From: an uncultured Clostridium sp.
Lineage (GTDB): Bacteria > Bacillota > Clostridia > TANB77 > CAG-508
Assembly: GCA_900553985.1 (NCBI GenBank)
Contig: USFW01000003.1
Span: forward strand, 31,492 to 95,491
DNA length: 64,000 nt
Reading direction: 5' to 3'
Both the position numbers and the translations under genes were made by a program. Of the stretch, positions 5,164-53,338 are shown piece by piece. The first letter of the stretch is position 1. Each line of letters begins with the position of its first letter. Under the pieces are notes generated by a model that worked only from the letters and a program-made list of their open reading frames with translations, did not search any database and was not told where the DNA came from.

Positions 5164-5333
5164 TATTTATTGTTATAGCAAAACGAATTTAATATTAGAA
5201 ATATGTGATTTATAGTCATATAAATTAGTTGATAAAACAAGATGAAATCTCATAATTAAAAAAAGTTAAATAAAAATTATAAGGTTTATAGGTAGCCATT
5301 AAAAACCTAAATATATTATAAAAGGAGAAGAAA

Positions 5334-7601
5334 ATGCTAAAAGTCTTAAAAAATTTAAAGAAAACTTTAGGTTCTGTAATTGCAATAGTAATATTACTTT
5401 GTATCCAAGCAACTACTGATTTAGCATTACCAGATTATACATCAAAAATAGTTAATATCGGAATACAAGCAGGTGGAATTGAAAATGCAGTACCAAAATT
5501 AATTTCTAAGGCAGATATGGAAAAAACACTGCTATTTACAGAAAATGATGAGGAAATTTTAAGTAATTATACATTATTAGGAGAAGAAAAGAATAAAGAG
5601 CAAGAAAAAATCCTAAACAAATATTTAGGAAAAGATTATAATGTAGAACCAAATACAATTTATGTTTTAAATGATGTAAATGAAGAAACTGAGAATAACT
5701 TAGAAAAGGATTTAGCTGGTGCTTTAATGGGAGCAACTGCAATTTCTAATGAAGAAACAGCAAATCAAATAAAACAAAAAATATTAGAAAATGTTCAAGA
5801 ACCACAAAAAACATATATGCAAAATAAGAGTTTAGTAGAGTTAATATCTAATATGCCAGAAGAACAAAAAAATCAAGTTTTACAAGAATTTACTAAAAAA
5901 ATAGATGAAATGAATGATTCGATAAAAGAGCAAGGAGCAGTTTCAGCAGTAAAGCAATTATACAAAGATTTAGGTGTTAATACAGATAAACTTCAAAATG
6001 ATTATATATTATTAGCAGGATTACAAATGCTAGGAGTAGCATCAATAACAATGATCTCAGCAGTATCAATTATGCTTTTATCAGCAAGAGTTGCTGCTAT
6101 GTTAGGAAAAACTTTAAGAGAAAAAGTATTCAAAAAAGTTTCTCAATTTTCAAATGCAGAATTAAATGAATTTTCAACAGCATCGTTGATAACAAGAAGT
6201 ACAAATGATGTGCAACAAATTCAACAATTAATAACTTTATTATTTAGAGTAGTTGTTTATGCACCAATTATTGGTATAGGTGGATTTGTAAAAGTACTTA
6301 CAGAAACAGATAATTCAATGGCTTGGATTATAGGAATAGCAATATTTGCAATTTTAGTAATTGTTGCAACATTATTTGCAGTAGCAATGCCAAAATTCAA
6401 AAAATTACAAGAATTAACAGATAAATTAAATGAGGTTACAAGAGAAATATTAACAGGAATTCCAGTAATAAGAGCTTTCCATAAAGAAAAAAAAGAAGAA
6501 AAAAGATTTGATGATGCAAATAAAGATTTAATGAAAACAAATGTCTTTGTAAATAGAGCAATGTCACTAATGATGCCTTTATTGATGTTTGTTATGAATG
6601 CAATAATGATTTTAATAGTTTGGGTTGGAGGTCACAAAATAGACGAAGGAATTATGCAAGTTGGAGATATGATGGCATTTATACAATATACAATGCAAAT
6701 CGTAATGTCATTCTTGATGATTTCAATGGTTTCAATTATGCTTCCAAGAGCATCAGTTTCAGCAAAACGTATAAATCAAGTTCTTGAAACAGAGCCTTTA
6801 ATTAAGGATAAAAAAGAAACAAAGAAATTAGACCCAAGCAAAAAAGGATTAGTAGAATTTAAAAATGTTTCATTCAGATATCCAGATGCTGATACAGAAA
6901 TATTAGAAGATATAGATTTTATAGCAGAGCCTGGAAAAACTACTGCAATAATAGGAAGTACAGGTAGTGGAAAATCAACAGTAGTAAATTTAATACCAAG
7001 ATTTTATGATGTAACAGAAGGAGAATTATATGTTGACGGTGTAAATGTAAAGGATGTATCACAAAAAGAATTAAGAGATGCCATAGGATTTGTACCACAA
7101 AAAGGAACATTATTTTCTGGAACAATAGAATCAAATATTAAATATTCAGATGAAAATATGTCAGATGAACAAATGATAAGCGCTGCAGAAATTGCCCAAG
7201 CAACAGAATTTATAGAGAATAAAGAAGAAAAATACAAATCACCAATTTCACAAGGTGGTGGAAATGTATCAGGAGGTCAAAAGCAAAGAATATCTATTGC
7301 AAGAGCCATTGCAAAGAATCCAGAAATATTTGTATTTGATGATAGTTTTTCTGCATTAGACTTCAAAACTGATAGTAAATTAAGAGAAGCTTTAGCAGAA
7401 AAAACAGAAAATAAGACTGTAATAATCGTAGCTCAAAGAATAAGCACAATATTAAATGCAGATAAAATTATAGTATTAGAAGAAGGTAAAATGGTAGGAG
7501 AAGGAACTCACGAAGAACTTATGAAAAATAATGAAACATATAGACAAATTGCACTATCACAATTATCTGAAGAAGAATTAGGACAGAAAGGAGGAGAATA
7601 A
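5334..7601 (+). CDS. ABC exporter, fused permease/ATPase, with a large insertion between TM1 and TM2
   Basis: Walker A GSTGSGKST, signature VSGGQKQR, Walker B IFVFDD. Six-TM exporter core. About 165 aa of polar sequence lie between TM1 and the next hydrophobic helix. Confidence 0.9.
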   Translation: MLKVLKNLKKTLGSVIAIVILLCIQATTDLALPDYTSKIVNIGIQAGGIENAVPKLISKADMEKTLLFTENDEEILSNYTLLGEEKNKEQEKILNKYLGKDYNVEPNTIYVLNDVNEETENNLEKDLAGALMGATAISNEETANQIKQKILENVQEPQKTYMQNKSLVELISNMPEEQKNQVLQEFTKKIDEMNDSIKEQGAVSAVKQLYKDLGVNTDKLQNDYILLAGLQMLGVASITMISAVSIMLLSARVAAMLGKTLREKVFKKVSQFSNAELNEFSTASLITRSTNDVQQIQQLITLLFRVVVYAPIIGIGGFVKVLTETDNSMAWIIGIAIFAILVIVATLFAVAMPKFKKLQELTDKLNEVTREILTGIPVIRAFHKEKKEEKRFDDANKDLMKTNVFVNRAMSLMMPLLMFVMNAIMILIVWVGGHKIDEGIMQVGDMMAFIQYTMQIVMSFLMISMVSIMLPRASVSAKRINQVLETEPLIKDKKETKKLDPSKKGLVEFKNVSFRYPDADTEILEDIDFIAEPGKTTAIIGSTGSGKSTVVNLIPRFYDVTEGELYVDGVNVKDVSQKELRDAIGFVPQKGTLFSGTIESNIKYSDENMSDEQMISAAEIAQATEFIENKEEKYKSPISQGGGNVSGGQKQRISIARAIAKNPEIFVFDDSFSALDFKTDSKLREALAEKTENKTVIIVAQRISTILNADKIIVLEEGKMVGEGTHEELMKNNETYRQIALSQLSEEELGQKGGE

Positions 7602-10212: not shown

Positions 10213-10344
10213 AAAATCTCCTTTCTTTCATTATATTAATACAAGTATATAAATAATAAAAAAAATATGCAATAATTTTGAAAAAAATATATGATAATAT
10301 TTTAAGATTAGTTCACAATAAAATAATATTTAGAAGTTATTTAA

Positions 10345-10620
10345 TTACTGGATAATGGTTTTAAAAATTAACCGCTGAAAATAGTTGATAATTATAATTT
10401 TTTTAGATTTTGACTACTTATTTCATTCAGAAAGAATTGGTAAGGCTTCCTAATGAGCCTCTCTCACTCAGACCCTTTCATACTTCAAGTACCGTGAGCA
10501 TTCCTCATTAGAAAGCCTAACCAATTCTAATCTTCATTCCAGTCGAACATCAAAATCTAAAAAAATTATAATTATTAACTATTTCCAGCTTCTCTACAAT
10601 AAAAACTATTATCATGTAAC
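10345..10620 (+). repeat. foldback element, copy 1 (family of four in this window)
   Basis: Whole-length imperfect hairpin centred near 10481. Outer arms are 10374-10414 and 10549-10589. The GC-enriched core is shared almost exactly with 24358-24635 and 50905-51175. Confidence 0.9.
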
Positions 10621-10730
10621 GTTATTTATATTAATTTTAAAAAATATATTGACAAAGATTTAAAAAAGTTATAATATTAAATCAATATATGAACATATAA
10701 TCATACAATTATATAAAAGGAGAAAAAATA

Positions 10731-19826: not shown

Positions 19827-21761
19827 ATGATAAAAATTACATTAAAAGATGGTTCTAATTTAGAAGTAGAATCAGGAGCAAAAATCATTGACATTGCAAA
19901 AAAAATAAGTGAAGGATTAGCAAGAAATGCAACTTGTGGAGAAATAGATGGAGAAATAAAAGACTTAAGATATGAAATAAAAGAAGATAGTAATTTAATA
20001 ATACACACATTTAATGAAGACGATTTAGAAGGAAAAAAAGCATATTGGCATACAACATCACACATAATGGCACAAGCAGTAAAAAGATTATTTCCAGATG
20101 TTAAATTTGCAATAGGACCAAGTATAGATGAAGGTTTCTATTATGATTTTGATGTTGAAAAACCATTTACAGATGAAGATAAAGCAAAAATAGAAGAAGA
20201 AATGAAAAAAATAATAAAAGAAAATATAGAAATAGAAAGATTTTCATTACCAAAAGATGAAGCTTTAGAATTAATGAAAGAACAACCATATAAAGTAGAA
20301 TTAATTGAAGAATTACCAGAAGATGAAGAAATCAGTTTCTATAAACAAGGTGACTTTACAGATTTATGTGCAGGACCACATCTAATGAGTACTGGAAAAG
20401 TAAAAGCAGTAAAAATATTATCATCATCAGGAGCATATTGGAGAGGTAGCGAAAAAAATAAAATGTTACAAAGAATATATGCAATATCTTTCCCAAAAGC
20501 TAGTCAATTACAAGAACATTTAGACTTTTTAGAAGAAGCAAAACAAAGAGACCATAGAAAAATAGGGAAAGACTTAGACATTTTTATGACACATAAATTA
20601 GTAGGTTCAGGACTTCCAATGTATTTACCAAATGGTGCAACTATTAGAAGAATTTTAGAAAGATATATTCAAGACAAGGAAATTCAATTAGGATATGCAC
20701 ATGTATATACACCATCATTAGCAAATGTAGACTTATATAAAACAAGTGGACATTGGGATCACTATAAAGATGATATGTTTCCAGTAATGAAAATGGATAA
20801 TGAAGAAATGGTATTAAGGCCAATGAACTGTCCACATCATATGCTAATTTATAAAAATAAAATGCATTCTTATAGAGATTTACCAATTCGTATAGGAGAA
20901 TTAGCTCATGATTTCAGATATGAATCAAGTGGTAGTGTTTGTGGATTAGAAAGAGTTCGTCAAATGTGCCAAAATGATGCGCATTTATTTGTAAGACCAG
21001 ACCAAATAAAAGAAGAAGTAGGAAGAGTTTTAACTTTAATAAAGGAAGTATATCAAAAAGATTTTGGATTTCCAGCTTCAGCCTTTAAATATAGATTATC
21101 TTTAAGAGATAAGAAAAATAAAGAAAAATATATTGATAATGACGAAATGTGGGAAACAGCAGAAAGTCAATTAAGAGAAATATTAAAAGAATTAAATATT
21201 GAATTTTATGAAGCAGAAGGAGAAGCAGCATTTTATGGACCAAAAATTGATATTCAAATCAAAACAGCATTAAATCATGATGTAACAATACCAACATGTC
21301 AATTAGACTTTGCATTACCAGAAAGATTTGAATTAGAATATATAGGAGAAGACGGAAAAGCACATAGACCAGTAGTAATTCATAGAGCAATTTTAGGTTC
21401 ATCAGATAGATTTATATCTTTCTTACTAGAAGAAACAAAAGGAAATCTACCAGTATGGGTAGCACCAGTACAAGTAAAAATATTGCCAATTACAGATAAT
21501 CAACATGATTATGCTTACAAGGTAAAAGAAAAATTACAAGTAAAAGGAATTCGTGTAGAAGTAGATGATAGAAATGAAAAAACAGGTTATAAAATTCGTG
21601 AAGCACAATTGCAAAAAATTCCGTATATGTTGATTGTTGGTGAAAAAGAAGTTGAAGGAAATACAGTATCTATTCGTTCAAGAGAAGAGGGGGATATTGG
21701 CGTAAAGGTAGTAGATGATTTTGTTGAAGAAATATTGGAGAAAGTAGAGAATAAAAAATAG
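19827..21761 (+). CDS. thrS: threonyl-tRNA synthetase
   Basis: TGS domain, editing-domain HxxxH (HTTSHIMAQAV), class II core and anticodon-binding domain. Length 644 aa. Confidence 0.95.
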   Translation: MIKITLKDGSNLEVESGAKIIDIAKKISEGLARNATCGEIDGEIKDLRYEIKEDSNLIIHTFNEDDLEGKKAYWHTTSHIMAQAVKRLFPDVKFAIGPSIDEGFYYDFDVEKPFTDEDKAKIEEEMKKIIKENIEIERFSLPKDEALELMKEQPYKVELIEELPEDEEISFYKQGDFTDLCAGPHLMSTGKVKAVKILSSSGAYWRGSEKNKMLQRIYAISFPKASQLQEHLDFLEEAKQRDHRKIGKDLDIFMTHKLVGSGLPMYLPNGATIRRILERYIQDKEIQLGYAHVYTPSLANVDLYKTSGHWDHYKDDMFPVMKMDNEEMVLRPMNCPHHMLIYKNKMHSYRDLPIRIGELAHDFRYESSGSVCGLERVRQMCQNDAHLFVRPDQIKEEVGRVLTLIKEVYQKDFGFPASAFKYRLSLRDKKNKEKYIDNDEMWETAESQLREILKELNIEFYEAEGEAAFYGPKIDIQIKTALNHDVTIPTCQLDFALPERFELEYIGEDGKAHRPVVIHRAILGSSDRFISFLLEETKGNLPVWVAPVQVKILPITDNQHDYAYKVKEKLQVKGIRVEVDDRNEKTGYKIREAQLQKIPYMLIVGEKEVEGNTVSIRSREEGDIGVKVVDDFVEEILEKVENKK

Positions 21762-24271: not shown

Positions 24272-24297
24272 GAAATATAGAATAATATATAAAATGA

Positions 24298-24340
24298 AGA
24301 CTGTCATAAATATAGGAATATATTTATAGGCAGTCTTTAA
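24298..24340 (+). terminator. intrinsic terminator
   Basis: AAGACTG..ATAAATA / TATTTAT..CAGTCTT stem followed by TTT. Confidence 0.6.
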
Positions 24341-24357: not shown

Positions 24358-24635
24358 GTTACTGGGTAATGTTTTTTAAATTAGTCGCTGTGAATAGGTG
24401 ATACTTATAACTTTTTTTAATTTTTGACTACTTATTCCATTCAGAAAGAATTGGTAAGGCTTTCTAATGAGCCTCTCTCACTCAGACCCTTTCATACTTC
24501 AAGTACCGTGAGCATTCCTCATTAGAAAGCCTAACCAATTCTAATCTTCATTCCAGGCGAACGTCAAAAATTAAAAAAAGTTATAAGTATCACCCATTCA
24601 CAGCTTTTCTATAATAAAAATTGTTATACTATAAT
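24358..24635 (+). repeat. foldback element, copy 2
   Basis: Same core as copy 1. The outer arms differ from copy 1 at about 8 positions, but the two arms still match each other at 41 of 42 positions. Confidence 0.9.
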
Positions 24636-36097: not shown

Positions 36098-36112
36098 AGG
36101 AGATGAAGTTTA

Positions 36113-36826
36113 ATGGAGAATGCATCAAAAGCATTAATAATAGCAGGTAGTGTGTTATTAGCACTAATAGTAATTGGTGCATTCATGTTAATGTTATCGA
36201 ATCTTACTGATTATAAGGATAAAAATGATACAAGAGTACAACAACAACAAATAGTCGAATTTAATAATCAATTTTCAACATATGATAGAATAGGTCTAAG
36301 AGGAACTGATATGCTATCTTTAATGAATAGAATAATAGACTATAATGTAAGAAAAACAGCAGAAGAAGTAGGTTTTCAAAAGATGAAAATGACTATAAAG
36401 GGAATTGATAAAAATATACTACAAGCAGTGAGATATGAGCCATCAGGACCAAACTTATTAATAAAGAAAAATGCTTATACGCAAGAAGATTTATCAGAAA
36501 TAGTAACAAAACCTCAAAATTTAGAAAATAAATATCAGAAAAAATATATTACACAATTAGTAAGTAACGTTTCATCTTTTATGGATATTTATAGCAGTAG
36601 TTTATCAATAAATCAAAAGATACAAGAAATAAATGATAAAAAATGGTTGCCCAAAAGTATAACAACATATGGGAGCTTAGATAGTGTGAAAAATGACATT
36701 TTAATATATTATGAGTATTCACAATTTAAGAGAACATACTTTGATTCTACAGGAGAGACTAAATATGATAAAAATACAGGAAGAATTACGGAAATGAATT
36801 TTAATTGTGTAGGAATAGGAGAGTAA
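36113..36826 (+). CDS. pilin-like protein, MENASKAL class (237 aa)
   Basis: N-terminus MENASKALIIAGSVLLALIVIGAFMLMLS. One of four paralogous N-termini in the locus. Confidence 0.6.
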   Translation: MENASKALIIAGSVLLALIVIGAFMLMLSNLTDYKDKNDTRVQQQQIVEFNNQFSTYDRIGLRGTDMLSLMNRIIDYNVRKTAEEVGFQKMKMTIKGIDKNILQAVRYEPSGPNLLIKKNAYTQEDLSEIVTKPQNLENKYQKKYITQLVSNVSSFMDIYSSSLSINQKIQEINDKKWLPKSITTYGSLDSVKNDILIYYEYSQFKRTYFDSTGETKYDKNTGRITEMNFNCVGIGE

Positions 36827-36827
36827 T

Positions 36828-37316
36828 ATGGAGAATGCATCAAAAGCATTATTAATGGCAGCAGGCGTACTAATTGGGGTATTGATATTATCTTTAGCAG
36901 TATTTTTATTTGTGAATTTTGGAGGAACATCAGCTAGGATACATGATACAGTACAAAAAAACCAATTAGCTAAATTTAATACACAATTCACTAATTATGA
37001 AACAAAAGAAAGTGTAACAATTTATGATATTGTTTCAGTAGCTAATTTAGCAACTGAAAATAATAGAGAAAATCAATTACAAAAGAAAACAGCATCAACT
37101 AATGGAATAGATAATTATATAACTGTAAAATTAAAAGGAAGATGTATAGAAGGTGGAGAAAACACAGATATAAAGCAACTAGAGGATGATTATAATAAAA
37201 AAATAATAGAAGATATCAATAGACAAAATAATGGAGAATTAAAAAAATATAAAGCAAAGACATATGTAAGTACAGAAACGGGCAGAGTTTATTTAATAGA
37301 ATTTAGTGAAATTTAA
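36828..37316 (+). CDS. pilin-like protein, MENASKAL class (162 aa)
   Basis: N-terminus MENASKALLMAAGVLIGVLILSLAVFLFV. Confidence 0.6.
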   Translation: MENASKALLMAAGVLIGVLILSLAVFLFVNFGGTSARIHDTVQKNQLAKFNTQFTNYETKESVTIYDIVSVANLATENNRENQLQKKTASTNGIDNYITVKLKGRCIEGGENTDIKQLEDDYNKKIIEDINRQNNGELKKYKAKTYVSTETGRVYLIEFSEI

Positions 37317-37357
37317 TAAAAAAATTTTATATATGGAATATATTAGACAGGTGAAAA

Positions 37358-37789
37358 ATGAAGAAATTTATAATTTTTTTAGTAGTTATTTTAATGATAA
37401 TTGCAACAATATCATATCTTTATTTGAATTATAAAGCTAATTACAACATAGCCCAAAAAGAAAATTTTCAATTTGAAAGTTACTATAATCAAGAAATATT
37501 TGGACCAGATGTTGCAACTGTAATAAATAAAGCAATTGATAAAAATTCAAACAACAATATAAAGAAAGATAATAAAGGCAATTACATAGAAGATAATACT
37601 AATTCGATAAAAATAGATATAAAATTTATAGATGATGATAAAATACACAACATGGAAGAAATCTTTAACAAAGGTATAGGCACATTTATGCAATATTATA
37701 GCCAGATAAAATTCAAATGCACAAAAATTGATTATCATAAATCTAGTAAAAAAGTTAAATATATGTTATTTGAACAAATAACAAAATAA
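37358..37789 (+). CDS. small N-terminally anchored protein of the pilus locus
   Basis: MKKFIIFLVVILMIIATISYLYL anchor followed by a polar domain. Confidence 0.5.
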   Translation: MKKFIIFLVVILMIIATISYLYLNYKANYNIAQKENFQFESYYNQEIFGPDVATVINKAIDKNSNNNIKKDNKGNYIEDNTNSIKIDIKFIDDDKIHNMEEIFNKGIGTFMQYYSQIKFKCTKIDYHKSSKKVKYMLFEQITK

Positions 37790-37859
37790 TAAAGTTATTT
37801 AAGTTACTAAAGAAATTTAGTATATATAGCAAAAGTAAAATTTAAAGGAGGAATTTTTT

Positions 37860-38282
37860 ATGGAAAATGCATCAAAAGCATTAATTATTGCAGGAGCAAT
37901 ACTATTAGCAATTTTAATTATAACATTAGGAATTGTAATTTACAATCAAGCACAAGGAGTAGTAAATAATAGTTCGATGAATCAAGTTGAAGTAACACAA
38001 TTTAATACACAATTTACACAATATGAAGGTAAACAAAGAGGTTCAGTTGTAAAATCTCTATTCCAAACAGTATTAGCAAATAATGTATCACAAGATAGTG
38101 AGGATAGACAAGTTAAAATTGAATGTACAGTAACAGGAAATTTAGAAAAAAATGCTACATCATTACCTGCAAATATGTCAAAAATAGCAACAGGTGCATC
38201 ATATGAAATAAGTATTAAATATGGTACAGGTAAAGGTAATGCTGGATTGGTTGATGTAATTACAGTTGCACCAGCAAATTAA
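37860..38282 (+). CDS. pilin-like protein, MENASKAL class (140 aa); major subunit candidate
   Basis: N-terminus MENASKALIIAGAILLAILIITLGIVIY. Strongest SD in the locus (AAAGGAGGA), preceded by a 70-nt spacer, and the smallest globular domain. Confidence 0.6.
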   Translation: MENASKALIIAGAILLAILIITLGIVIYNQAQGVVNNSSMNQVEVTQFNTQFTQYEGKQRGSVVKSLFQTVLANNVSQDSEDRQVKIECTVTGNLEKNATSLPANMSKIATGASYEISIKYGTGKGNAGLVDVITVAPAN

Positions 38283-38308
38283 AAAGTACAAAGAAAGGAT
38301 GATATATT

Positions 38309-38950
38309 ATGGAAAATGCAGCAGACGCATTAAAAATGGCAGCAGCCGTATTAGCTTTTGTTCTAGCATTAGGAATTAGTATGTCATCTTTTTCCGAAGT
38401 TAGAGAAGTTTCTGAAATAATTTTAAATTATAAAGACAAAGAATATAATTACAATTATATTCCAGAAAATGGAGATACTACTAGAAAAGTAAGTGTAGAG
38501 ACAATAGTTCAAGCAATTTATAGAGCGTACAATGAAAATTATAAAATTTATTTTTATGAAAATGGTAATGAATCAGACCCATTAACTATATTTCAAAAAG
38601 GAACAAATCAAAAAGAAGAAATTAATTATATTGATTTAAGAGGACAAGCACTAGTAAGTGTTGAAAAGAGAAATCAGTTTATAGGTTGCATTTTATATGG
38701 AAGTTCATATAGAGATCCTAATGGAAAATCATTTAATGATATAAAAAATGAATTTAAAGAACTAGGAATTATATTGCAAGATCAAGGATTATATGATAAA
38801 ATATTAAGTAGTGGAGGAGCTGAAGAAAAATTTGGAGTGTATTATGAAGATGATGAGATAGTAGATAACTCAAATCCAGATGATTCTGAATCAAACGTAC
38901 CACAAGCAAACAGAGTAAAGAAAAGGGTTATTACATATATTTTGCAATAA
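38309..38950 (+). CDS. pilin-like protein, MENAADAL variant (213 aa)
   Basis: N-terminus MENAADALKMAAAVLAFVLALGISM. Confidence 0.55.
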   Translation: MENAADALKMAAAVLAFVLALGISMSSFSEVREVSEIILNYKDKEYNYNYIPENGDTTRKVSVETIVQAIYRAYNENYKIYFYENGNESDPLTIFQKGTNQKEEINYIDLRGQALVSVEKRNQFIGCILYGSSYRDPNGKSFNDIKNEFKELGIILQDQGLYDKILSSGGAEEKFGVYYEDDEIVDNSNPDDSESNVPQANRVKKRVITYILQ

Positions 38951-41224: not shown

Positions 41225-41360
41225 TAATTGTGCTTGCTTATACTATATTTCAAATATAATTTATTATTAAACTGGTAATTATAATATAAAAAATGATAAG
41301 GTATAATATAAAATAAAAAGTTAATAATATTAAAGAGAACTTAAAAAAAAGGAGAAAAAA

Positions 41361-42591
41361 ATGCAAAAGAAAACAAAATCTTTAATATTATTGACTTTTT
41401 TAATTATAATATACATGTATACATTAGTGATAACATCAATACCAGGTAAAATGGTAGTATTTGAGGGAGAAGAAATAAACATAAAAACATTATTAGGACT
41501 GAATTTAATGGAAAAAAACGATAGCATGGAAGTATCATCAAATGTAAATAATCAGAAAATAAATGAAGTAGGAGTAAAAAAGCTTACATTAAATTTGTTT
41601 GAAAAATTACCATTAAAATCCATAAATGTATCAGTATTGCCAAGAACTAAAGTAATACCGGTTGGAAACATTGCAGGAGTAAAACTATATACAAGTGGAG
41701 TTTTGGTGGTAGGAATGTCTGAAATAGAAGGGAAAGATAATAAAATATATAAGCCATATGAAAATACAGGAATAAAAGAAGGAGATACAATAACTAAAAT
41801 AAATAATAAATATATATCTTCAACTGATGATCTAATAGATAATGTAAATAAATCAAATGGAGATACAATTGAAGTAACATATATTCAAAATGAACAAACA
41901 AAAGAATGTAGTATAACCCCAGTAAAAACTGATGAAGATGAATATAAAATTGGACTTTGGGTAAGAGATAGTGCAGCAGGAGTGGGAACAGTAACATTTT
42001 ATGAACCTGATACAAAAACATTTGGAGCACTAGGACATGGGATAGCAGATATAGATACAGGTGAGTTATTAAATATAGCATCAGGAGAGTTTGTAACGAC
42101 TAGAGTTTTAAATATAACAAAAGGAGAAAAAGGAAATCCAGGGAAAATTCAGGGAACAATTGAAAATCAACAAACAATAGGAGAAATATCAAAAAATACA
42201 GGTTTTGGGATATATGGCAAAGTAGATAATATATCAAGTTTAGATATAGATGCATCCAAAGAAATGGAAGTAGCATTAAGAGATGAAATAAAATTAGGAA
42301 AGGCAAAGATACTATGTAACTTAGATAATAAAAATGTACAAGAGTATGAAATAGAAATAAAGAAAATATATAAGGAAAATAATTATAATAACAAAAGCAT
42401 GGAAATAGAAATAACAGATGAAAGGCTAATAAACAAAACAGGAGGAATAATACAAGGAATGAGCCGGATCACCAATAATTCAAAATGGAAAATTTGTAGG
42501 TGCAGTAACACATGTATTAGTTAATAATCCAAAAGAAGGATATGCTGTGTTTGGAGATTTAATGCTAAAACAAACAAAAGAAATAAAATGA
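41361..42591 (+). pseudogene. spoIVB: SpoIVB peptidase (S55) interrupted by a 1-nt frameshift at the catalytic-Ser motif
   Basis: PDZ plus S55 domains. The frame breaks after GGIIQGMS (extra C at 42464/42465 in AGCCGGA). The +1 frame continues [34 protein letters not shown] to the TGA at 42589-42591. This matches the conserved GMSGSPI...GAVTHV region. Confidence 0.85.
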
Positions 42592-48263: not shown

Positions 48264-48285
48264 GTGTGGTGCTTTTGAGGGGAAC

Positions 48286-48525
48286 GTTAAAATATAGCCG
48301 TTAGAAACTAGTAGTATAAATAATTTTTTTATATTAACGGCTTCTTTCATAATTTAAGAAATTCTATTGCAAAATTTTTGGTGCCCTTTCTGTGTTGGTC
48401 TCTTTTTGGAAAAGCGACCACACGAACATTACCCCAAAATTTTGCAAAGATTTTCTAAAATTATTCCAGTCACACATTAATATAAAAAAATTATTTACAC
48501 TACTACTTTCTAACTACTCTACAGT
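48286..48525 (+). repeat. foldback element, divergent fourth member
   Basis: Nested inverted repeats 48300-48338 / 48476-48514, 48351-48381 / 48433-48461 and 48391-48399 / 48415-48423, centred near 48407. Flanks and internal loops are homologous to copies 1-3, but the core differs. Confidence 0.85.
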
Positions 48526-48578
48526 GTTGAAAAAGTGCATTTTTTATGATTTAATATTGGAAGGATGGATGATGTGAT

Positions 48579-49592
48579 ATGAAGAAGAGAATTTTGACAG
48601 GTGATAGACCAACGGGAAGATTGCATATTGGACATTATTTTGGGTCTTTGAAGAAGAGGGTTGAGATGCAAAATAGTGGTGAGTATGATATGTATATTTT
48701 GATTGCTGATGTTCAAGCTTTGACTGATAATTTTAATAATCCAGAGAAGGTTAGAAATAATGTGAGACAACTTGCTATGGATTATTTGGCTTGTGGTATT
48801 GACCCTAGTAAAACTACTATATATATACAGTCTATGATACCTGAGACTGCTGAGCTTACTGTTTATTATTCTAATTTGGTTTCAATTGCAAGATTGGAGA
48901 GAAATCCAACTGTTAAGACTGAAATTGCTCAGAAAAGAGAGGTTTTCGGCGAGAGTGTTACTTATGGATTTTTAGGATATCCAGTTAGTCAAGCAGCTGA
49001 TATAACAACTTTTGAAGGTGAGTTAGTTCCAGCAGGAGAAGATCAAGAGCCTTTAATAGAACAAGCAAGAGAGATTGTTAGAAAATTTAATAGTATTTAT
49101 GGAGATGTTTTAGTTGAACCTAAAATTGTATTGTCAGAAGGTAAAAGAATAAAAGGCCTTGATGGTAATGAAAAGATGGGTAAATCTTTAGGAAATGCTA
49201 TTTATTTATCTGATACTGAAGAAGAAATTACAAAAAAAGTTATGAGTGCTGTAACAGACCCTAATAGAATAAAAAAAGATGATTTAGGAAATCCTGATAT
49301 ATGTATGGTTGCATATTATCATAATCTATTTACAGATTCAGAAGATGTGAAAAAAATATGTGAAGAATGTAGAGCTGGAAAAAGAGGTTGTGTTGCTTGC
49401 AAAAAACAATTGGCGAAAAATATAATTGAGTATTTAAGACCGATAAGAGAAAAAAGAAAATATTATGAAGAGAATATAGAACTTGTAGATGAGATCCTTA
49501 AAGAGGGAACTGAAAAAGCAAGAAAGACAGCGAAGGAAACAATGAAGAAAGTAAAGAGTGCTATGAAATTAGATTATTTTGATGAAATATAA
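48579..49592 (+). CDS. trpS: tryptophanyl-tRNA synthetase
   Basis: HIGH motif (GRLHIGHYFG), KMSKS variant KMGKS, and length 337 aa. Confidence 0.95.
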   Translation: MKKRILTGDRPTGRLHIGHYFGSLKKRVEMQNSGEYDMYILIADVQALTDNFNNPEKVRNNVRQLAMDYLACGIDPSKTTIYIQSMIPETAELTVYYSNLVSIARLERNPTVKTEIAQKREVFGESVTYGFLGYPVSQAADITTFEGELVPAGEDQEPLIEQAREIVRKFNSIYGDVLVEPKIVLSEGKRIKGLDGNEKMGKSLGNAIYLSDTEEEITKKVMSAVTDPNRIKKDDLGNPDICMVAYYHNLFTDSEDVKKICEECRAGKRGCVACKKQLAKNIIEYLRPIREKRKYYEENIELVDEILKEGTEKARKTAKETMKKVKSAMKLDYFDEI

Positions 49593-49600
49593 AAAGTTAA

Positions 49601-50887
<1,287 letters not shown>

Positions 50888-50904: not shown

Positions 50905-51175
50905 TAATAGATATAGCTTTTACAAATTAACCGCTGAAAATAGTTGATAATTATAATTTTTTGGGCTTTTGACTACTTATTTCATTCAGAAAGAATTGGT
51001 AAGGCTTCCTCATGAGCCTCTCTCACTCAGACCCCTTCATACTTCAGGTACCATGAGCATTCCTCATTCGAAAGCCTAACCAATTCTAATCTTCATTCCA
51101 TGCGAACGTCAAAATCCAAAAAATTATAATTATCAACTATTTTCAGCTACTTTATAATAAAAGATTTTTAGTAAT
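50905..51175 (+). repeat. foldback element, copy 3
   Basis: Same core as copies 1 and 2, with five substitutions. Outer arms 50933-50973 / 51108-51147. Begins 18 nt after the obg stop codon. Confidence 0.9.
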
Positions 51176-51309: not shown

Positions 51310-51394
51310 AATGTATATTTGAATTAAAAAATAAAGTCAATAGTTAAAATCGATAATTAAATTTTAGCTATTGGCTTTATTTTGTTTTAAAAAT

Positions 51395-51814
51395 CTATTT
51401 TTTAAATCCATCACTAATATCATAATAATAATCTAAGCATCTAGCAATATAATCAGAATTTACATTAAAATAATTTGCTATTTCAGTTGCAGTAGATATA
51501 CCATTATTAATTAATTGTTTAACTTCTTGATATGGAAAAAATTCGTTCCAAGCTGCAATATCAGCAGACTGCTCCATATCATTTATTGTTTCATAAGGGT
51601 CATTAGATTTATAATATGAATGAGCTAAATAATGACCAAATTCTTGAATTATAATTGTATTTTCATGTGTAGAATTTTTAATTTGCTCTTTATCAACAAC
51701 TATTGCAGTAATATTTTCATAATGTACAATTGCACCAGGTGTCAAAAAAAGTTTTTTATTTATATAGTGTATATTTTCTTGTTGTAATCTTTTGTATAAA
51801 TCATCAGTATTCAT
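51395..51814 (-). CDS. ImmA/IrrE-family metallopeptidase-like protein with a variant motif (QEFGH)
   Basis: Small protein directly downstream of an XRE repressor. IIIQEFGHYLAH sits where the HExxH motif is expected. Confidence 0.6.
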   Translation of the reverse strand: MNTDDLYKRLQQENIHYINKKLFLTPGAIVHYENITAIVVDKEQIKNSTHENTIIIQEFGHYLAHSYYKSNDPYETINDMEQSADIAAWNEFFPYQEVKQLINNGISTATEIANYFNVNSDYIARCLDYYYDISDGFKK

Positions 51815-51816
51815 TT

Positions 51817-52149
51817 TTAATTTTTATTTTGTTTTTTTAATAAATCCTCCATAATTTCTCGTAAAATTTCCTGATTTTCTTTATTTAATCCCTTTATGCC
51901 ATTTGCAAAAGCAATTTCTATATCATCAAGTTCTAAACTGTTATTTTTAACATCACTTTTACAGAGAATATAATCTATACTACAACCAAATATTTCAGAT
52001 AATCTTATTAAAATTTCTATACTAGGTTTGCGTGATTCATTTTCGTACATTGCAATAGTGCTTTTTGCACCATTAATTTTATCAGCAAGTTCTTGTTGGG
52101 TATATCCAAATTGTTTACGCAATTCTTTTATCCTATTCATTGCAATCAC
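51817..52149 (-). CDS. XRE-family HTH repressor (ImmR-like)
   Basis: MNRIKELRKQFGYTQQELADKINGAKSTIAMYENESRKPSIEIL is a canonical HTH_3 domain. Confidence 0.85.
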   Translation of the reverse strand: MIAMNRIKELRKQFGYTQQELADKINGAKSTIAMYENESRKPSIEILIRLSEIFGCSIDYILCKSDVKNNSLELDDIEIAFANGIKGLNKENQEILREIMEDLLKKQNKN

Positions 52150-52227
52150 TCCTCATCAACAATTATAACATGCATATATAACATATTTCAACAAATAAAT
52201 ACAAAGTTCTTTAATAAATCAAAAAGA

Positions 52228-52265
52228 TTGACAGTTCACTTAAAGTATATTATACTTAAAGTGAA
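52228..52265 (+). promoter_or_regulatory. promoter overlapped by a 15-bp inverted repeat operator
   Basis: TTGACA (52228-52233), 17 nt, TATACT (52251-52256). TTCACTTAAAGTATA (52235-52249) pairs with TATACTTAAAGTGAA (52251-52265) with one mismatch. Confidence 0.55.
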
Positions 52266-52416
52266 TTTAAAGGAAAGGAGATAATGTAATGAAAAAAAGA
52301 AAATATTATTTAATAATCTAGTATAAGAACAAATAATTTTACAAAGAAAAAAATATGAAAACAAAGATGTATTTTTTATCCAAAAGCATAATGCTAAAAT
52401 AATAAAGGTGATAATA

Positions 52417-52791
52417 ATGAGCGAAGTAATAAAAAATTTAAAAACTATAAGGAAAAAATTAGATAAAAGTATAAGAAAATATGGAATATATTCAGAAAAC
52501 TCACAAATAATTAGTAAAGAATTTGATGATTTATTAAATGTGTATTATAAATCCATAAAAGAAGTAGAATTTCCTGAAAGCTCAATGATGATAATTTATT
52601 ATAGGATATCATATAATGCATTAAAAGAATTAACACAAAAAAATAAAAAGTTTCCATTAGTAAAAGAATGGAACAAATATGCTAAAGAAAATAAATTTAT
52701 GTCACATATTTCTTTAGAATACATATCGAAATTAGATTGGAATTATATACAAATAAAAGTTGAAAGAGAAATAAATTTAGAAATATTATAG
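52417..52791 (+). CDS. protein with a Spo0E-like N-terminal domain
   Basis: LKTIRKKLDKSIRKYGIYSENSQIISKEFDDLLNVY resembles the Spo0E aspartyl-phosphate phosphatase helix-hairpin (SQELD.LI). The ATG at 52417 is 6 nt after AGGTG. Confidence 0.45.
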   Translation: MSEVIKNLKTIRKKLDKSIRKYGIYSENSQIISKEFDDLLNVYYKSIKEVEFPESSMMIIYYRISYNALKELTQKNKKFPLVKEWNKYAKENKFMSHISLEYISKLDWNYIQIKVEREINLEIL

Positions 52792-52987
52792 GAGATTTTG
52801 TCGAAAATGATTGCAAAAAACTTGACAAGATATTTTAATTTTATAAAATAGATAAAAGAGATAGAAGACCGCGAAATCTATTACTATCTCTTTTATAACA
52901 ACACTCAATAAAGAGGTGTTACTATCAGTATAACCTCTTTATATACAAAAGTCAAATGTATTTTATACGAAAGAGAGGTTTTAATTT

Positions 52988-53146
52988 ATGAAAAAGATGA
53001 AATTAGAAGATTTTATAAGAAAAAGGATATTTGAGAATAGAAAAATGTTTTCTAAAAAAGAATTGACAAAAATAGATGAAAATATTATACTTATAAAAAA
53101 GATATATATATTGGCATTAAAAGATAGTTGGAATATGTATAAATAG
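52988..53146 (+). CDS. hypothetical small protein (52 aa)
   Basis: ATG 9 nt after AGAGAGG. Encodes MKKMKLEDFIRKRIFENRKMFSKKELTKIDENIILIKKIYILALKDSWNMYK. Below the ORF-track length cut-off. I recognise no homology. Confidence 0.3.
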   Translation: MKKMKLEDFIRKRIFENRKMFSKKELTKIDENIILIKKIYILALKDSWNMYK

Positions 53147-53149
53147 ATT

Positions 53150-53272
53150 TAAAAGGGAGTAGCTTTAATTTACTAATCAACAGTCGCGATAATTATTATC
53201 TGGTTAGTAAGCTTTTGGAAATGAGCAAGCGAGACTTTTAAAAGGAAAACAATACCTTTTAAAGGTCTTTTT
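53150..53272 (+). promoter_or_regulatory. yybP-ykoY-like (Mn2+) riboswitch candidate with terminator
   Basis: 5' AAAAGGGAGTAGC (53151-53163) and 3' GAGCAAGCGAGACTTTT (53223-53239) resemble the conserved GGGGAGUAGC / AGCAAGAC strands. Terminator: AGACTTTTAAAAGG (53232-53245) pairs with CCTTTTAAAGGTCT (53255-53268), followed by a T-run. The terminator shares GACTTTT with P1. Confidence 0.5.
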
Positions 53273-53338
53273 ATATGTTTATTTTATGTCATAAAAAACT
53301 AAAATAATGCCAAAATAATTACAAAAGGAGGAAGAACA

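Follow-up and report, generated by a model that had tools for sequence, protein, structure and literature searches.

Short non-coding repeats that fold back on themselves along their whole length have been described from several bacterial lineages. Correia/NEMIS elements of Neisseria, ERIC and YPAL of enterobacteria and RUP of pneumococcus are bounded by terminal inverted repeats, duplicate their target and occur in many intergenic copies, and some hairpin MITE families also carry promoters or binding sites (PMC3184786). Among Firmicutes, the bcr1 repeat of the Bacillus cereus group is mobile, has flanking direct repeats and maintains a predicted structure through compensatory changes, as far as the account in PMC3184786 goes (citing Klevan 2007, Kristoffersen 2011). 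Work in E. coli offers a different route to matched arms: template switching at quasi-palindromes copies one arm onto the other, which makes imperfect inverted repeats more perfect and leaves mirrored substitutions, multi-base changes and indels without any selection (PMC7202029).

The repeat described here shares with Correia/NEMIS, ERIC, YPAL and RUP the features listed above. Unlike them, it has no sequence similarity to any of the four, belongs to a clade of gut Clostridia (25.8% GC in the stretch analysed), is better conserved at its centre than at its ends and comes with no parent insertion sequence in the DNA searched; its target duplication is 8 bp, as opposed to the TA of Correia and RUP. 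The bcr1 repeat differs in being ~155 bp long with 5-bp direct repeats and a two-hairpin shape, and in being transcribed, again by the account in PMC3184786; the substitution spectrum of the present element carries no strand signal. Template switching was demonstrated on short (~18 bp) engineered E. coli palindromes (PMC7202029). Its action on a natural 280-bp element of Clostridia is something we infer.

Other classes of palindromic sequence were considered and rejected. REP/BIME sequences are GC-rich palindromes of 20-40 bp with a GTAG/CGTC head, mobilised by RAYTs without target duplication, whereas this element is ~277 bp, AT-rich and flanked by 8-bp duplications. Palindrome-associated elements derived from IS200/IS605 carry a sub-terminal hairpin at each end and likewise make no target duplication, in contrast to the single whole-length foldback and 8-bp duplications found here. 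Integron attC sites are imperfect palindromes in cassette arrays beside an integrase; the present copies lie 2.6-24 kb apart among housekeeping genes (era, obg, trpS) and form no array.

We analysed a 64,000-nucleotide stretch of DNA (the window) from an uncultured Clostridium sp. The region studied is one copy (copy 2) of a ~277-bp non-coding mobile repeat of uncultured human-gut Clostridia, and represents a new MITE-like family confined to a few gut Clostridia MAG species. A literature search returned no described Clostridium MITE with these features. We call the repeat MITE-like because of its terminal inverted repeats, 8-bp target duplications, multiple dispersed copies, empty site and lack of a conserved ORF; the one MITE hallmark not recovered from the DNA searched is a cognate autonomous insertion sequence. 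The original prediction had described a smaller element and had not recognised a mobile repeat with terminal inverted repeats and target duplications. The family adds an undescribed small mobile repeat to a poorly known, uncultured group of the human gut, and explains assembly breaks at these sites in its genomes.

Anatomy of the Repeat

The anatomy of the family was established from an alignment of 24 copies and from the fold of that alignment (Table 1). From the outside in, terminal repeats enclose a bubble, a 40-bp stem, internal loops, an inner stem of ~24 pairs and the apical core. The terminal inverted repeats are imperfect, 15 bp long and of the form GTTAC...GTAAC (GTTACTGGATAATGG ... 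CCATTATCCTGTAAC). The bubble is non-complementary, with TTTTAAAAATTAACC on the left and TTCTCTACAATAAAAA on the right, and the internal loop is asymmetric, with CTACTTATTTCATTC on the left and TCTTCATTCCAGTCGAACG on the right.

Table 1. Positions of the parts of copy 2 and of the other copies in the window.
Feature	Position	Strand	Basis and remarks
Likely terminator upstream of copy 2 (hairpin, then T-rich tail), after the upstream glycosyltransferase gene	24297-24340	+	Read from sequence; a consensus terminator scan made no call
Copy 2, left terminal inverted repeat (GTTACTGGGTAATGT)	24358-24372	+	2 mismatches to family end; aligns with left ends of other copies
Copy 2, asymmetric bubble, left side (TTTTTAAATTAGTC)	24373-24386	+	Not complementary to right side; alignment and consensus fold; 86% conserved, 31 loci
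Copy 2, 40-bp stem, left arm (as in the original prediction)	24387-24428	+	Inverted repeat, 98% complementary; covarying pairs
Copy 2, left internal loop (TACTTATTCCATTC)	24429-24442	+	96-97% conserved; sequence kept even in divergent copy 4
Copy 2, inner stem (~24 pairs) and GC-richer apical core (GAGCCTCTCTCACTCAGACCC...GTGAGCATTCC)	24443-24547	+	Fold; 98-100% conserved, best-conserved part of the family
Copy 2, right internal loop (TTCATTCCAGGCGAAC)	24548-24562	+	Alignment and conservation
Copy 2, 40-bp stem, right arm	24563-24604	+	One A.C mismatch against left arm
Copy 2, bubble, right side (TTTTCTATAATAAAAA)	24605-24620	+	-10-like TATAAT/TACAAT; TACAAG in 6 of 24 copies
Copy 2, degenerate right terminal repeat (TTGTTATACTATAAT)	24621-24635	+	Alignment of copies
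Copy 1, full element	10344-10620	+	Arms 10374-10413 / 10550-10589, 95% complementary
Copy 3	50908-51171	+	Arms 50933-50969 / 51111-51147, 95% complementary; between obg and a tRNA gene; orthologous to the L019 copy
Copy 4, distant relative	48271-48538	+	Arms 48293-48337 / 48477-48521, 89% complementary; directly upstream of trpS

The arms of copy 2, each 42 nt long and 134 nt apart, match exactly the sequences quoted in the original prediction, and we confirmed that they pair at 41 of 42 positions even as the left arm differs from that of copy 1 at about 8. The predicted fold of the copy reaches -98 kcal/mol on the plus strand (z = -16.5 against shuffles) and -112 kcal/mol on the minus strand. 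Positions 24525-24526, in the inner stem, are polymorphic within the species: the window has GA, which pairs perfectly, two strains have GT, and six have TT, with two pairs broken.

Coding capacity amounts to a single 14-codon ORF, and no ORF is conserved; a small peptide product was rejected since this ORF is not kept in copy 4. An outward promoter at the right end (TTATCA-17-TACAAT) was weakened as a candidate by the TACAAG variants (Table 1).

The four copies in the window all lie on the plus strand and are all intergenic. Copy 4 retains the architecture of the main family with stem sequences that are wholly different yet still paired. The loop motifs CTTCTTTCAT and ATTCCAGTC occupy the same structural places in copy 4 as in the main family, and the 12-mer loop motif CTACTCTACAGT is common to copy 4 and the copy at locus L013. 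Searches with copy 4 as query (blastn, nhmmer) matched only copy 4 itself, and no further copies of its kind were present in the related loci examined. Rfam models detected no T-box leader for thrS (19827-21761) or trpS (48579-49592) in a search of the whole window or in a permissive search upstream of trpS. The region upstream of trpS is filled by copy 4, whose right end is overlapped by a promoter-like site (TTGAAA-17-TTTAAT).

Evidence for Mobility

Flanking direct repeats of 8 bp provide a trace of insertion. Across 31 independent loci, the repeats matched at 8/8 positions in three (four if a 1-nt shift is allowed), at 7/8 in four and at 6/8 in four, whereas 930 comparisons of mismatched flanks gave no 8/8 match and reached 6/8 or better in 3.7%. 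The perfect duplications flank copy 1 (GTTATTTA, at 10336-10343 and 10621-10628), L030 (CAAAATAT) and L035 (AAAAAGTT), with L069 added by the one-base shift. The terminal repeats themselves are ~13/15 complementary in the best copies and degenerate in many, with 71% of cells paired.

An empty site was found at L061, where the flanks of the L030 locus are contiguous and the element is missing; L061 is a more distant relative, its flanks being ~80-90% identical. In addition, L024 carries a truncated copy, the left half, at a position where the window has none. We rejected the idea that the window shows the empty site of the L058 copy, as synteny breaks there. An internally deleted mini-copy lies 9 nt upstream of a full copy in L017 (925-1000, minus strand); it has kept both ends and the bubble and has lost the whole hairpin core.

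Searches of the window and ~600 kb of related loci with terminal-repeat patterns recovered no autonomous partner with matching ends, the hits being chance matches in AT-rich sequence, and an all-against-all search for other repeated segments returned only synteny between related contigs. A 1.2-kb insertion between trpS and obg in L019 was considered as a transposase and rejected, as it holds a gene of unknown function; this is a 365-aa ORF (5264-6361, minus strand) with no recognised function, absent from the window at 49592-49613. One strain (L006, 1-35, minus strand) has a gene for a 411-aa HTH_38 protein, which we take to be possibly a transposase, between thrS and rplU, where other strains have none. 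Just after copy 3 and the tRNA gene, ~1.9 kb of the window (51333-53278) is absent from L019, which is otherwise 95-97% identical. This segment encodes an Xre-type HTH protein, an ImmA/IrrE-like Peptidase_M78 protein and a weak Spo0E-like protein, and looks like a small island or prophage remnant beside the tRNA gene.

Distribution in Human-Gut Assemblies

The era protein adjoining copy 2 was found on human-gut metagenome contigs, and copy 2 stands at the same place in all eight strains examined, with 2-4 differences, all in the inner part. When species-representative genomes were scanned with the internal-loop pattern, true matches were limited to four MAG species, all with the label uncultured Clostridium or Clostridia; two of these are 94-97% identical to the window. 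The apical 20-mer added 31 further loci from metagenomes, all in human-gut assemblies, and the core 20-mer occurred in metagenomes only inside copies of the element. In total, we recovered 51 full copies, which represent 31 independent loci; one metagenome assembly accounts for at least 16. We put the number of copies per genome at 16 or more. Eleven metagenome contigs end inside the element, as is expected of a multi-copy repeat. Viral contigs, phage records and plasmid records gave no match to the repeat.

No Rfam 15 family matched the repeat at the gathering score, the window yielding two tRNAs only. In permissive E-value mode the sole matches were generic long-hairpin (miRNA precursor) models, far below threshold. 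Derivation from SRP RNA or 6S RNA, both long hairpins, was rejected for want of a model match.

Covariation of the Arms and Its Origin

The original prediction held that the arms co-evolve, contrary to what simple decay would give, and named a larger alignment as the check on whether arm differences are mirrored. Mirroring extends across both larger samples, which bears out arm co-evolution as opposed to simple decay. In the 24-copy alignment 93.6% of cells pair, and two-sided changes affect 21 pairs and 71 cells, compared with 13.4 pairs and 30.4 cells in shuffles (0 of 500 reach the observed values) and 8-11 pairs and 12-21 cells when partners are slid by 1-3 columns. With one copy per locus (31 loci, terminal repeats left out), 98.4% of cells pair and two-sided changes fall in 21 of 66 pairs and 71 cells, far beyond the 7.0 +/- 1.6 pairs and 15.8 +/- 3.7 cells of shuffles (0 of 1000). 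Copy 4, its stems replaced and still paired, shows the same arm co-evolution over a longer time. Arms that change in step are familiar from small transposable repeats, and even strong covariation, when the foldback is a repeated one, does not in itself count as evidence of a functional RNA.

The mirrored changes comprise 26 distinct variant states, half of them (13) common to non-orthologous loci and half private in this sample. The shared states mark subfamilies that spread after both arms had changed. In copy 2, only the adjacent AA>TG / TT>CA change relative to copy 1 is private to the locus; its other mirrored differences (T>G, A>C, T>C and one additional base in both arms) are common to the subfamily of L014 and L027, and thus were inherited from a source element. 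Mirroring within an element, as originally proposed, therefore stands insofar as the arms do co-evolve, but much of it was inherited from subfamily sources and was not made in each resident copy.

Close orthologues give a different picture, differing by unmirrored changes only (copy 1 against L024, with 4 differences; copy 3 against L019; nine strains with copy 2). Mirrored differences between orthologues number 15 and come mostly from three pairs, L013/L054, L027/L067 and L036/L062, whose members belong to different subfamilies despite standing at one locus, as if a copy had been replaced by another of the family. Genomes have subfamily markers in common, so homogenisation is not species-wide. 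A chimeric copy in L012 (6513-6782) joins a left arm of the copy-2 subfamily to a right arm of the main subfamily, has five arm mismatches and lacks the left terminal repeat, and suggests recombination between copies.

Arm identity might instead reflect youth only, had each copy arisen recently by palindromic duplication of a half-element. Nearly perfect arms in several copies would fit such an origin, to which we give almost no credence. It is excluded by the non-palindromic segments (bubble, internal loops and apical core), which are identical in kind and orientation in every copy. Moreover, orthologous copies occur in species that are 90-96% identical to one another, and copy 2 is fixed in 9 strains.

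Conservation of the Centre and Orientation of Copies

Conservation across the 31 loci rises from the terminal repeats (72%) through the bubble (86-91%), the 40-bp stem (93%) and the internal loops (92-97%) to the inner stem (98%) and the apical region (98-100%). Orthologous pairs repeat the gradient, with 96% conservation in the centre and 93% in the 40-bp stem against 78% in both the element ends and the 150-nt flanks; the exception is copy 1 against L024, where flanks are equally conserved. Either of two causes would give such a gradient: constraint on the centre, or conversion among copies, which works best in the middle of a repeat.

Orientation is biased as well. In tandem gene contexts 18 copies (17 loci, and copy 3 with its tRNA) are co-oriented with neighbouring genes and 3 opposed; divergent gene pairs flank a further 5-7 loci, and convergent pairs flank none. 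Much of this could come from a bias in gene strand combined with a strand preference in insertion. Two promoter-like motifs facing the core, TTGACT-16-AAGAAT and TTGACG-18-TAGAAT, are invariant in the family and degraded in copy 4; both are consensus matches only.

Given the conserved centre and the orientation bias, there is still a modest chance that the repeat has a real function. It is conceivable, though in our judgement quite unlikely, that purifying selection acts on the central 110-135 nt of resident copies, from internal loops to apical core and including the inner stem, for the sake of the structure into which the nucleic acid folds; the family would then be a dispersed regulatory module in fixed orientation upstream of promoters, as opposed to a passive transposon. 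If so, the centre might act either as RNA, transcribed from the promoter-like motifs inside the element, or as folded DNA that a protein recognises.

RNA or DNA as the Cause of Arm Matching

Selection on an RNA hairpin was among the mechanisms originally offered. The element may be a structured RNA, or may have turned into one, whether as a family of small RNAs or as a cis-acting leader; selection on the transcript would then keep the hairpin, and transposition would serve for dispersal only. Several of the above results are consistent with such an RNA: the strong covariation (21/66 pairs), the loops and apical core conserved while stems vary, even in copy 4, the better conservation of the centre than of the flanks in orthologues, the 18:3 orientation bias and the invariant motifs facing the core on both strands. 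The bcr1 repeats, which are transcribed and show compensatory changes in the account of PMC3184786, provide a precedent.

The substitution spectrum argues against selection on a transcript. Half-changed pairs comprise 17 cells of G.U on the plus strand and 15 of A.C, the equivalent of G.U on the minus strand, and this equality means that neither strand is favoured. Mirrored changes are of transition type in 15 cases and of transversion type in 11, close to the 22 and 19 of unmirrored changes, so that transition-type double changes are not enriched and the wobble route is not preferred. Tandem double substitutions that are mirrored (TG/CA in copy 2, CC/GG in L054) and the mirrored one-base insertion argue in the same direction, as does location: copies follow terminator-like hairpins and precede the canonical -35 boxes of the downstream gene by 30-50 nt, which places them outside obvious transcripts. 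Against an RNA stand, too, the close orthologues and within-species polymorphisms that break pairs without compensation, the decay of the promoter-like motifs in copy 4 and the lack of any matching Rfam family. We thus regard a structured RNA as unlikely; the tests run here provide no evidence for a functional RNA from the repeat. DNA-level correction of the arms, or selection for a foldback needed in mobility, is a more likely cause than selection on RNA. Template switching at quasi-palindromes (PMC7202029), which needs no selection, has just the outcome observed in these arms. The RNA part of the original proposal is therefore unsupported, and a process at the DNA level fits better, short of proof.

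A protein such as the mobilising enzyme, a regulator or a protein of the nucleoid could also recognise the foldback as DNA, in cruciform or single-stranded hairpin form; selection on shape would then keep the arms paired, and the conserved loops would act as contact sites. Folding of both strands would fit the symmetric G.U/A.C spectrum, conserved loop and bubble sequences would suit contact sites, and the copies stand a short way upstream of promoters, with none in intergenic regions between convergent genes; other bacterial MITEs have protein-binding sites (PMC3184786). No candidate protein emerged from the present data, however, and resident copies tolerate mismatches. The single-strand transposases of IS200/IS605 make no target duplication, and the 8-bp duplications here point to a staggered double-stranded cut and away from a hairpin-dependent enzyme of that kind. 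Recognition of the foldback as DNA consequently appears rather improbable to us.

The best explanation, and one we consider probable, is a non-autonomous, MITE-like foldback repeat of ~277 bp whose arms were matched by inheritance from source elements and by correction at the DNA level, with overwriting of some copies and later drift. Insertion with 8-bp target duplication would presumably depend on a transposase supplied in trans, and new copies would descend from a few source elements with matched arms. The arms of the long quasi-palindrome may be corrected against each other by hairpin-templated template switching or repair, and/or only well-folded source elements may be mobilised. Resident copies would occasionally be overwritten by another family member, and after insertion copies would mostly drift by unmirrored changes.

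Not all observations favour such a MITE-like origin. Loop motifs survive in copy 4 despite full replacement of the stems, 13 mirrored states are private, and the orientation bias (18:3) and the lead of centre and stem over the flanks in orthologues count the same way. If a transposase recognised the ends, these should be the best-conserved part of the family; instead conservation is lowest in the terminal repeats and highest in the centre. The family nonetheless provides a clean natural case of arm co-evolution in a long quasi-palindrome, and its orthologous copies in several species could allow DNA-level arm correction to be separated from structural selection.

Other Features of the Window

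A separate inverted repeat, unrelated to the foldback family, lies at 41301-41414 and overlaps an ORF start at 41361; its 36-nt arms are 86% complementary and 42 nt apart. Four adjacent genes at 36112-38378 resemble one another over a 71-nt 5' end coding for a hydrophobic N-terminus (MENASKAL...), and form a cluster of paralogous pilin- or pseudopilin-like genes.
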